The notes beneath the pieces are model-generated. The model was not told the DNA's origin. It ran no database searches and worked only from the letters and a program-made list of their open reading frames with translations. DNA of 64,000 nt from Leucoraja erinacea (taxonomy: Eukaryota), in assembly GCF_028641065.1 (NCBI RefSeq), contig NC_073395.1, forward strand, positions 34,100,001 through 34,164,000, given 5' to 3'. This document shows, piece after piece, positions 31,226-54,528 of this stretch (position 1 is the stretch's first letter; each line of letters opens with the position of its first letter). A program made the position numbers and the translations under genes.

Positions 31226-32111
31226 TTAAAAAAAACTCAACAGTACAGAGCTGATGGAACATATGGCAGGGATGTTGTTTTAAACTTTACAAATGTATAT
31301 GGTGTTTTATAATCATCGTGTTTTTTCATGGCATGGAACATTAAATTATCAGTACTAGAATGACAATTAAATTCTATGTTAAGAAATACCTGAAGTGAAT
31401 TACATTCTACATGAAAAATGCACATCATTTTCGCAAGGCTTTGTGAATGAGGGGGTGGTGTCTTTCATATTTCAGTTGGGTTTCGTCTAACAAATTATTT
31501 CACCTCGATATTTAGAAATGTTCCTCATTAACTTCATGACTGTCATTTTCAAAACTTGCAAATCCTGCAATGAATAAAGATGCACATCTCCCATCCATTA
31601 AGCAGGTTTCTGTTTTCCTGTTAAATACTCATTAAAAATATATTGTCTGCAATGTATACAAACATCAAGGTGTGTGTAGGATCAGCAGCATTCACGTTTC
31701 CATACACTACTCGTAGCTTAATGAGCAACGACATAAAGGTTGGTGATCCTTATAAATGCATTTTACATATCGATGCGAGTCATGGGTAATGCAGAGGGAG
31801 GTGTCCTCTCAAACTCACACAGTATGGATACAGTTACTCAGAACATGTTCTAGTGTTACATGTTAAAATTCAGTTGTCTAGTGACTCATTTAACTTCTTC
31901 CATTGTCATGCAGTAACTAACCGGCCAGGAGCTGTTAGCAAGTACTGCCAAGCAAAGATACTAGAGCGGACTATCTTTGCTGCCAAGGAGAACGAGCCAT
32001 CATTTTCTTGTTTGTCCCAGTAAATCCTCAAACAAGTGCCTCTGGCTTGGCTGAGGCCATGGACCTGGGGAACAGTCTACTATTTGGAGGGTGAATAGAT
32101 TCTGCATCTCA

Positions 32112-35822: not shown

Positions 35823-36404
35823 AGGGTCTGTTCCACTTGGGCGTCATTTGCGCACCATTTACACGACATCTTAAAAATTTGTCATCGCGTGGTGAGACGT
35901 GGTGGCGTATGCAGTGACGCGCGGTAACGCGTGGCGCCCCAGGATTTTGTGAGGCTCAAAATCCTCACACTCCACCTGCGTGACGTATCCCTTGCGCACG
36001 CTGACGTACTGACGGCATACGTGTAGCGCGTGGTGACACATGGTGACGCACGAACATTGCCTATGCTAATTTATTATGCGTCACCGTGCATCACCATCCG
36101 TAACCGTGCGCGCCCGTATGCGGTCGGCGCGCCATTTGCACGTCATTTGAGCGCCGCACCACGTGACCACCCGATTATAAAGAGCGCGTGGTTTTTCACC
36201 ATAGTATCTTTGATTTTCACTGGGAAAATCCTTGCCACGGAGATCGGGCTAAGTACGAACGACATCGCAAATGGTTCTCAAAAGAAACGGGGCCCTCAAG
36301 AGCACTTGGCGTGTGACTGTCGCACTGCTAGACAATTTTCGCGCGACAGTCGAGCGCCTGTTGCGTAAATGACCCGCAAATGACGCCCAAGTGGAATAGG
36401 CCCT
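35823..36404. mobile_element. PIF/Harbinger-type MITE
   Basis: TIR agggtctgttccacttgggcgtcatttgcg / cgcaaatgacgcccaagtggaataggccct; flanks TAA / TGA. Confidence 0.82.
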
Positions 36405-51811: not shown

Positions 51812-52529
51812 ATAAGAAATGTGTGTGGGAGTTTAGGCAAGTCAGCAGCTTTGCCATTCAGTAGGATCATGGCTGATCTCTAACTCAACTCCACCTTCCT
51901 GCACTGGCCCCATCTCTTTACCCTTTTAATATCAAAAAAATCTTTCAATCTTAACCTTAAATATCTATTCAGTGACTGAGCCTCCAAAACCTTCTTTAGT
52001 AGAGAATACCAAGCACCCATTAGTTCTGGGTGAAGAGATTTCTTCTCATCTTTATCATGAGCGGCTGAGTTTTTATTTGAGATTCTGACTCTGGTTCCAC
52101 TTCCCCCACCACAGGGAACATCAACTCCTCATGAGCTCTGTCAAACCCACATTAAATACTTTATCTGTTTAAATTCACCTCTCATCCTTCAAAATGCAGT
52201 GCAGATCCAGTCTTATTAAACTCTCCTCATGACATTGCTGCAGGTATGAATCTGTTTACTGTTTACTAGACTGCCTAGAATATCAGTTTAGTAAATCAGA
52301 CCTGCGTACACCTGGGACTTGTATAATTGGTGCAACACACCTCTGCTCTTACACTCAAAAGCTCTGACAACAAAGGTCACCATTCAGTTTGCACTCCGAA
52401 TTGCTTGCTAAACCAGGAGCCATTTACATACAAGAACATTCAGATCCTGGTGACCACCAACACCTTCATGGCAATTGAATAAATATCCTCACTTCTATTA
52501 TGTTTTATCATTACTCTCTTCCACAGATC

Positions 52530-54528
52530 CAGGGCTGCCAACTCTCACGCTTTGAGCGAGACACTCACGCATTTCAGCCAATTCTCACTACCTCACGCTG
52601 ATGACTGAATTCTCACGCTGTCTTCAGTCCCTGCACAGCAAAGATCCTATAGCGGAGCTATATAGTGGAGCTATAGGATCTTTGCTGCACAGTTTGTCTC
52701 TTTACGCCACATGACAGCGATCTGCACGGATTGGGGAAGCGCGTCGGTCCCGGACAGCGGGTGTCAGTGCTGCGCTGCCGGCTGCCACGGCAACCTCGCT
52801 CCCCCCCTCCCTCCCTCCTGCCCTTCAACACACACAGCAGCACCAAAGCAGCCAATCCACGCTACACTGTGCCCGCCAGACTCCCTATTGGGTGGCCGGA
52901 GAAAGAGAGGGAGGAGAGAGGGAGGGGAGCGAGAGAGAGAGAGAGGGAAAGAAAAAAAGGGAGGGATGGAGGCAAAGAGAGACAGGGAGGGAATGTAGAA
53001 AGGGGATGAAGGAAGGGAAGGAGAAAGGGGAGAAAGAGGAAGCGTGAGGAAAAAGAGGGAGGGGGAGAAAAGAGAGAGAGGGAGGGGGGGATGTGAGGGG
53101 GGGGAAGGAAAGGCGTGCGTGTCTCCCCGTGTGTCTGTCTGTCTCCCTGTGTGTGTCTCCCCGTGTGTGTGTGTGTGTGTGTTCCCTGTGTGTGTGTGTG
53201 TGTGTGTGTGTGTCTTCTTTTGTGTATTGTCTCCCTGTGCGTCTGTTGTCACATCCTGGCCTTAGACAGGGCTGCCAACTCTCACAAGCGTGAGAGTCAC
53301 ACATTTCAGCCAATTCTCATGCTGATGACAGAATTCTCACGCTGTCTTCAGTCCCTGCACAGTTTGTCTTTTTGCGCCACATCACAACGATCTGCGCGGT
53401 CTGGGGAAGCGCGTTAGTTGGCGGCTGTGAGTGACGTTGCTTCTCTTCTTTTCTTTCTTGGTTGGATGTGCAGCCGCCGGAGATAGAAATAACCAGGTGA
53501 ACTGGTTGTAAAACATGGGGGGGACCACAATGAGGCCAAACATCTAGGACGGGGTTCGGCAACCGATGGCACACGGGCTGAATCCGGCCCGTAACCCAAA
53601 AAAACGCGTTTTTTTTCAATTTGTTTTCGCAGGGTCGGGGCAGGCGAGCCGACCTGAGAACTGCAGCCAGTCCCTGGGCATGCAGAATGCCAACTTGATC
53701 ATTCTTGAGATTAATACCCCTTTGCTCTGTTAACAGCGTTAAAGTACTTATGAGGTCGAGTCAGGAAAGGGAACATGTTATTTTTTTTAGTTTGCTTTAA
53801 TTTGTTAGTTGATTGTTTGTTGACTGCCATCATTTCTGAAATGGTCTTAAAGTAACGTAACTGTTATGAAGCAGTAATAAGTGATTTTTGTCCAAACAAT
53901 TGGAACTTGCATAGAACGTTTGCATTTCTAGCATGGCTGCCAACTCTCACGCATTGAGCGTGAGACTCACGCATTTCACAAAATTCTCACGCTCTCACGC
54001 TGATCTCAAAATTTCTCACGCTCAATAATCTGCGGGTGCTAAAAGTTCAAAATAAAGCAAACATTGTTTTAGAGGTGAGTAAAACCATGAGGGGAATATC
54101 AGGTGAATGCATAGTCTTTTTCCCAGGATATGTGATTCAAGCACTAGAGGAGATTGGTTTAAAGCAGGGCTATCAAACAGGATATCTTTGGGGGAAAAAA
54201 AGGTAGTTTTGTTTCTCCCATGCAGATGGTGTGATAGGTGAGACACGATGGCGGTGGTCCCAGCACCAACCCCCCCTCCCCTTTCCGCCCTGAGGCACAG
54301 CACACACCTCCCACCCTCACCTCCGGCGGCTCTATGTCCGTCGGCCGCTCTGTCCACACCCCATGGAGTTTTAACCCTGGCCCGGAGCCAGGAGCAGACA
54401 GGGTTGGCGCCACCTCTGGAGCCTACTATGGGAGGGGGAACACCCCGTCCCACACCCTCCCCCCCCTCGGTCACTACGCACCCTCGCAATTTCTCACTCT
54501 CAACTCTCACCCAATGTTGGCAGCCCTG
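52530..54528. mobile_element. Non-autonomous hAT-like element with reiterated left ends
   Basis: TIR CAGGGCTGCCAAC at 52530, 53268 and about 53932, with one inverted copy at 54516-54528; arrays of CTCACGC subterminal motifs. Confidence 0.7.
52639..52684. mobile_element. 46-bp TIR micro-element with 8-bp TSD
   Basis: Perfect 15-bp TIR CAAAGATCCTATAGC; TSD CTGCACAG; paralogous empty site at 53355-53362. Confidence 0.8.

Follow-up and report, generated by a model that had tools for sequence, protein, structure and literature searches.

Introduction

The closest described relative of the system presented here is the P element of Drosophila melanogaster, for which a staggered long cut is documented. 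According to the portion of the review available to us (PMC7776569), the fly transposase cuts 17 bp inside the 31-bp terminal inverted repeat (TIR) on one strand and contacts the inner half of the TIR, while the transferred strand loops out and pairs with the non-transferred strand over its 5' portion, nucleotides -14 to -18 being disordered. The cut leaves 17-nt tails on the donor flanks, and end joining of these tails yields products in the order target-site duplication (TSD), stub, junction, stub, TSD (Table 1 of PMC2895639, in its accessible part). A hard limit inside the TIR is therefore predicted for P excision scars.

The skate units described below resemble these fly products, as the accessible part of PMC2895639 presents them, in consisting of an 8-bp TSD, a TIR stub, a junction that is blunt, microhomologous or filled by a templated insertion, a second stub and the TSD; in both, the stubs do not exceed the tail left (in the skate, putatively) by the cut. 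They differ in tail length, which would be 18, 19 or 20 nt by subfamily here and is 17 nt in the fly, and in origin: the fly products come from a laboratory assay, whereas those considered here are natural genomic fossils, numbering hundreds to thousands, some of them multiplied as passengers inside other repeats.

Among vertebrates, zebrafish Pdre2/zfTHAP9 is, like the family studied here, P-type, with an 8-bp TSD and internally deleted copies. The available sections of PMC10983969 describe about 50 copies with 13-bp TIRs and excision with larger deletions; in these sections the long cut is not mapped and no integration is detected. In the skate family, by contrast, a single tip type accounts for more than 1,300 exact long ends, the transposase open reading frames (ORFs) are near-identical, and there are TIR-stub units that we read as scars.

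Results

We analyzed a 64,000-nt stretch of Leucoraja erinacea contig NC_073395.1 (the window). It contains a 46-bp unit (52639-52684) with perfect 15-bp inverted ends, flanked on both sides by CTGCACAG, an 8-bp TSD (Table 1). Within the unit, a 13-mer is repeated in tandem (nt 10 to 22 and nt 23 to 35, 12/13 identical), and removal of one copy leaves a 33-bp core. A paralogous segment carries CTGCACAG once and lacks 54 bp, corresponding to the unit plus one 8-mer. The first-pass annotation was accurate in describing the insert, its inverted ends, the flanking 8-mers, the segment with a single 8-mer and a core of about 33 bp, and in regarding the unit as insertion derived. The DNA of the unit is predicted to fold into a hairpin of -13.1 kcal/mol; this follows from its TIRs and is uninformative on function. 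With three mismatches allowed, the lone 15-mer is found four times in the window against a mean of 1.8, which is not above chance. A TIR-like tip, CAAAGATACTATGG, is present on the minus strand at 36198-36212 and is followed by CG-rich palindromic repeat sequence; its partner end and TSD were looked for, and neither was found.

Table 1. Positions of the unit, its host element and related features in the window
Feature	Position	Strand	Basis
Left copy of the TSD, CTGCACAG	52631..52638	+	sequence
Left stub: nt 1-20 of a P-family end, stopping exactly where long elements go on with AAGATRG	52639..52658	+	
Second copy of the 13-bp tandem duplication (first copy 52648-52660, 12/13 identical), stretching a 33-bp scar (our reading) to 46 bp	52661..52673	+	
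Right stub: nt 1-15 of the other P-family end	52670..52684	-	
Right copy of the TSD, CTGCACAG	52685..52692	+	
Nonautonomous host DNA element with ends CAGGGCTGCCAAC...GTTGGCAGCCCTG, carrying the unit in segment 1	52530..54528	+	
"Empty site": lone CTGCACAG in host segment 2 (segment start 53267)	53355..53362	+	
27-bp unit joining two stubs of the same family at an independent site; TSD CTGCCAAG, perfect	31953..31979	+	

The host element that carries the unit in its first segment is 2 kb long, has CAGGGCTGCCAAC ends and may be hAT-like. The 5' end of this element is present in three internal copies (52530, 53267, and 53932), and among nine copies with both ends, the TSD is an exact 6-bp repeat in five and measures 8 bp in one. 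The genome contains 88 matches to the filled host site and 174 to the empty one. In 61 mapped host loci, it is the first segment that holds the filled site, usually followed by an empty site in the second internal segment, where the left flank is fixed; likewise, among 87 host segments, the filled ones are first segments in 34/35 cases and the empty ones second segments in 35/52. Since the pair is repeated at many host loci, the side-by-side arrangement has been copied as one piece. The "empty site" of the window is the host element's own internal duplicate.

That the unit of 46 bp should be a transposon in its own right is very unlikely: all 13 genome-wide matches to its junction type lie at the CTGCACAG host site, not at independent TSDs. 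The commonest form at the filled site is 33 bp long (21/36 units), the other units ranging from 12 to 60 bp, and the longer forms are tandem repeats of one 11- to 13-bp unit, in up to several copies. No long element was found among the 88 filled-site matches listed. In a tree of host segments, which has few columns and unsettled bootstrap values and is thus rough, the filled segments form one group (92/92) that also takes in seven empty first segments, and the 46-mers are dispersed among the 33-mers.

This dispersal, the 12- to 60-bp spread of junctions at one host site and the host copies that break off near nt 19 to 20 could also be explained if, at this locus, each host copy had lost a long P element of its own and the 46-bp junction were a primary product of templated-insertion repair rather than a later expansion of the 33-bp form. 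We consider this unlikely, given that 33 bp is dominant, that a long element is kept at none of the 88 filled sites listed and that the longer forms repeat the same 11- to 13-bp unit. The simplest history comprises one insertion, one excision, passive spread and repeated small expansions, separate excision in each host copy being less likely. Most likely, therefore, the 46-bp unit is a passenger copied inside the host repeat, and the locus, ordinary when taken alone, is one passenger copy of one old scar.

Window positions 51900-52790 were also compared with contigs from four runs (organisms A, B, E, and F). The host copy is joined to the unique left flank in contigs X1, X6, and X19; it is common to at least two other organisms, and thus predates their split. 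Among the pieces and loose ends listed, beside which the comparison holds another 263 loose ends and 4,613 pieces, none spans the unit together with locus-specific flank, and no loose end carries AAGATAG.

Short units of this kind are abundant elsewhere. In the 2.19-Gb genome, the pattern formed by the 15-mer, 0 to 30 nt and the second 15-mer is found at 297 places, and a backwards control at none, so that the pattern is not due to chance; the 50 of these 297 matches that were listed are 30 to 47 bp long and have many different middles. Eleven of the first 15 loci are flanked by an 8-bp TSD that is perfect or has a single mismatch, the remaining four being two nested cases and two host-site copies. 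At the start of contig C1, 89 exact 15-mer hits at 70 loci comprise 44 short units, 27 long ends and 18 other hits. From these proportions, and from 3,960 genome-wide hits for a pattern sampling about three quarters, we estimate that short units number in the low thousands genome-wide. The first-pass annotation had proposed to look for short copies with independent TSDs, and these exist: 162 TSD-bounded short units fall into 85 independent flank clusters. In the short copies, position 2 of the TSD is T in 71% (84% in long copies) and position 7 is A in 71% (81% in long copies), so that short and long copies have a target preference in common. Independent TSDs cannot separate mini-transposons from scars, because scars also keep the TSD.

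Single-end searches revealed that the 15-mer also tips longer elements, in which it continues through RGAGC-AAGATRG into subterminal sequence. Exact long ends of the window's tip type number 1,347 genome-wide, and TSD-bounded nonautonomous long copies measure 372 to 1,174 bp. A P-transposase profile search of the genome yielded 40 matches. Two elements with tips of the 18-nt type enclose a P transposase ORF: one of 10,519 bp with GTCGTGAC as the TSD on both sides (G000:C956:134044-144562) and one with the exact 8-bp TSD GTCAGCGC (C1:34496784-34506705). The ends of the unit are the tips of a P-superfamily family with long nonautonomous copies and P transposase genes. Thus, of the P or hAT affinities first suggested for the ends, the P assignment stands, and the long transposase-bearing elements that were to be sought exist, albeit with tips of the 18-nt type. 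The 20-nt tip of the window lies beside six transposase loci at one end only; the partner end, searched by TSD in the stretches covered, was not found at these six loci. The link of this tip to the transposase therefore rests on that one end and on shared inner sequence.

The long transposase exon (773 aa) matches PF12017, PF21787, PF21788, and PF21789 above the cut-off, and its sole match in the PDB is the fly P transposase (6p5a; E value, 1.3e-42). In the alignment with 6p5a, D230, D303, and E531 (numbering from PMC7776569) fall in the D/D/E positions, and seven of the eight GTP-pocket residues listed for the fly are identical, K400 being replaced by R. The P-type helix-turn-helix (HTH), the split RNase H and the GTP-binding insertion domain were all found in the parent transposase. 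An N-terminal THAP domain is recognized by PF05485 in one locus (L088); exons 1 and 2, which look THAP-like, are open in L079, L081, and L083 and frameshifted in exon 2 in L078 and L082. The family thus shares with Drosophila P, as far as the available source text describes it, the THAP, HTH, split RNase H and GTP-binding domains, the catalytic triad and the 8-bp TSD, and presumably the cut inside the TIR. It differs in TIR sequence and in the 18- to 20-nt variation of tip length among transposed subfamilies. A cut within the TIR and GTP dependence would be expected of this transposase, judging from the stub cut-off and the conserved pocket residues.

Five transposase copies are 98.7 to 100% identical. 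L079, L081, and L083, located on small unplaced contigs, have exons 1 to 3 open and 99.4 to 100% protein identity over the long exon; they are candidates for activity or, alternatively, assembly near-duplicates. Some long P elements (L078, L146, and L166-L190) contain internal scars, 31 bp long at ATCCAAAG and 33 bp long at ATTGCACC, which are inherited by many copies and which we read as self-insertion followed by excision. In another long element (L226:266-1400), AAGAT is preceded at both tips by short duplicated or inserted sequence, and one stub reaches 32 nt; this suggests that the tail gap was filled in an error-prone manner at integration.

The TIR of the parent elements runs past nt 20 into AAGATRG, and the short units end just before this motif. 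Genome-wide, 558 short matches, a figure that counts strands and passengers rather than events, depart from the parent right after nt 20; five continue with AAG, four of which are explained by overlap with the other end. The 85 independent sites provide 170 ends, of which 66 coincide exactly with the motif, 96 fall short of it and 8 extend beyond it. This sample derives partly from patterns that tolerate no more than one mismatch in the TSD and call for intact stubs of 15 or 20 nt; the peak at the motif is inflated as a result, but the whole-genome lack of longer ends is not affected. Only 5 of the 85 units have an end of at least 23 nt, against 37 expected under uniform breakpoints.

The stop also differs among subfamilies. 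In long elements, 18, 19, or 20 nt precede AAGAT, and each type has copies with TSDs of their own. Among the 100 of 446 matches to the 18-nt tip that were listed, 75 are long ends and 25 are other matches (counted by eye); of the latter, 23 depart right after nt 18 and two extend by a single further base, so that nt 20 is never reached. For the 19-nt tip, 31 short matches stop after it, with a TSD of at most one mismatch at 23/30 loci.

These observations bear on the possibility that no defined staggered cut was involved and that long elements instead collapsed spontaneously, or underwent abortive gap repair, to give the units. Palindromes are deletion-prone, the host-site copies show later deletions and expansions, and a wider pattern retrieved three short units that read through AAGATRG, all of which would agree with such an origin. 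However, collapse gives no reason for one stop position within a continuing TIR (558 against 5), for so few ends of 23 nt or more, or for a stop that moves with the motif in the 18- and 19-nt families, and we give this explanation hardly any credence. The common inner stop of hundreds of scars instead likely marks the position at which the enzyme would cut.

The junctions at the 85 sites comprise 9 blunt joins, 11 with 1 nt of overlap, 50 with at least 2 nt and 15 with extra or unmatched bases. Microhomology of at least 2 nt thus occurs in 50/70 simple joins, compared with 22% by chance. The recurrent sizes are those expected, 40 bp from a blunt join of 20 and 20 nt and 38, 33, and 28 bp from joins at GC. 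The stubs retain the unequal end pairs of long subfamilies (19 plus 20 nt, or two different 18-nt tips), and the units lack both the inner TIR and the subterminal motifs common to both ends of long copies.

Could the short units, or at least the palindromic 38- and 40-bp forms, nevertheless be mobile mini-transposons? The 297 exact-ended copies, the perfect TSDs at 50/73 single-copy sites and the occurrence of identical 38-mers at many unrelated TSDs (38-bp units occupy 13 of the 73 single-copy sites) speak for it, and mobility would also produce the 33-, 38-, and 40-bp units that recur at unrelated TSDs. MITEs such as Made1 (about 80 bp) are likewise short, TIR-rich, TSD-flanked and present in many copies; they are, however, homogeneous and keep the whole TIR. 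The units here are heterogeneous, varying in junction from site to site and stopping at a fixed motif inside the parent TIR, and so do not form a homogeneous family with complete TIRs. Their lengths run from 12 to 60 bp with many junctions and no master copy, the 15 insertion-type junctions at independent sites are all different, and the recurrent forms are those predicted from GC microhomology or from blunt joins of 20-nt tails. The restriction of the 46-bp type to one host site and the unequal end pairs are further arguments against mobility, as is the lack of the inner TIR, which the fly transposase contacts according to the available part of PMC7776569. Mobility of the 38- and 40-bp palindromes is accordingly unlikely, and for the short units as a whole we hold it to be very improbable.

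Two further loci do not fit the insertion of a self-contained unit. In L313, a unit of 20 plus 20 nt has no TSD of its own, and its right flank matches the TSD belonging to a long end that lies 118 bp upstream. L314:4879-5178 (300 bp) consists of a left stub, the end of another element together with about 240 bp of foreign flanking sequence, a right stub and the TSD, and looks like sequence captured in break repair. Elsewhere, a tandem array of 24- to 27-bp units made from the TIR stub (L227; G000:C1:49388604-49388924) has the appearance of a scar turned into a minisatellite. In L306-L312 and L317, scars are often closely paired (two within 20 to 840 bp), and some lie in CG-rich, promoter-like DNA; these loci were picked partly for pairing and CG context, and no enrichment is claimed.

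Discussion

The sharp stop inside the TIR and the blunt, microhomologous and insertion-bearing junctions are those of P excision repair in Drosophila, and the short units are therefore most likely donor-site scars. We thus propose, with a probability of about 0.88, that the unit in the window is made up of both outer tips of a transposon of the P superfamily within an 8-bp TSD, left by end joining at the donor site after excision, and is not a mobile element. The first event would have been the insertion of a long P element, at CTGCACAG, into an ancestral host-repeat copy. A P-type staggered cut by the transposase would have followed, as the sharp cut-off suggests, severing one strand at the tip and the other immediately before AAGAT and leaving single-stranded tails of 18 to 20 nt on both flanks. 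Joining of these tails at GC microhomology would give the 33-bp scar. The distribution of filled sites shows that the host repeat multiplied with the scar aboard, which as a history would place this spread after the excision, and 11- to 13-bp duplications arising in some host copies would account for the 46-bp form.

How the inner cut is positioned may be read from the tips. Since the stop shifts with the motif in the 18-, 19-, and 20-nt types, the position of the cut would be defined by the duplex beginning at AAGAT. The same five bases are also found at nt 3 to 7 of every tip. We lean, by a narrow measure, toward a wider reading in which this P family was recently active and has near-intact transposase genes, in which the inner cut is set by the AAGAT motif and not counted from the tip, so that 18-, 19-, and 20-nt tails would all work, and in which AAGAT at nt 3 to 7 would enable pairing between the looped tail and the strand just cut, as in the fly. 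By analogy, the pairing idea would fit the fly strand-transfer structure as the available part of the review describes it, and the nucleotides disordered in that structure (-14 to -18) would tolerate a change in tip length (PMC7776569). Within the same reading, the scars, which number in the thousands, would preserve, for a vertebrate, a natural record of where insertions once lay and of end joining in the germline.

In the main text of the openly accessible papers searched, we found no account of this family or of naturally occurring P scars surveyed across a vertebrate genome; the P family itself may already be named in Repbase or Dfam. Our analysis adds genome-wide scar counts, TSD-bounded parents that bear the transposase and a passenger history. 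It also carries a warning for annotation, as rules based on a TIR plus a TSD will call excision scars tiny MITEs. In this genome, the cut position can be read from fossils, alongside five transposase gene copies that are nearly identical. If the cut is indeed anchored to the motif, these fossils would tell how the P transpososome measures its ends.
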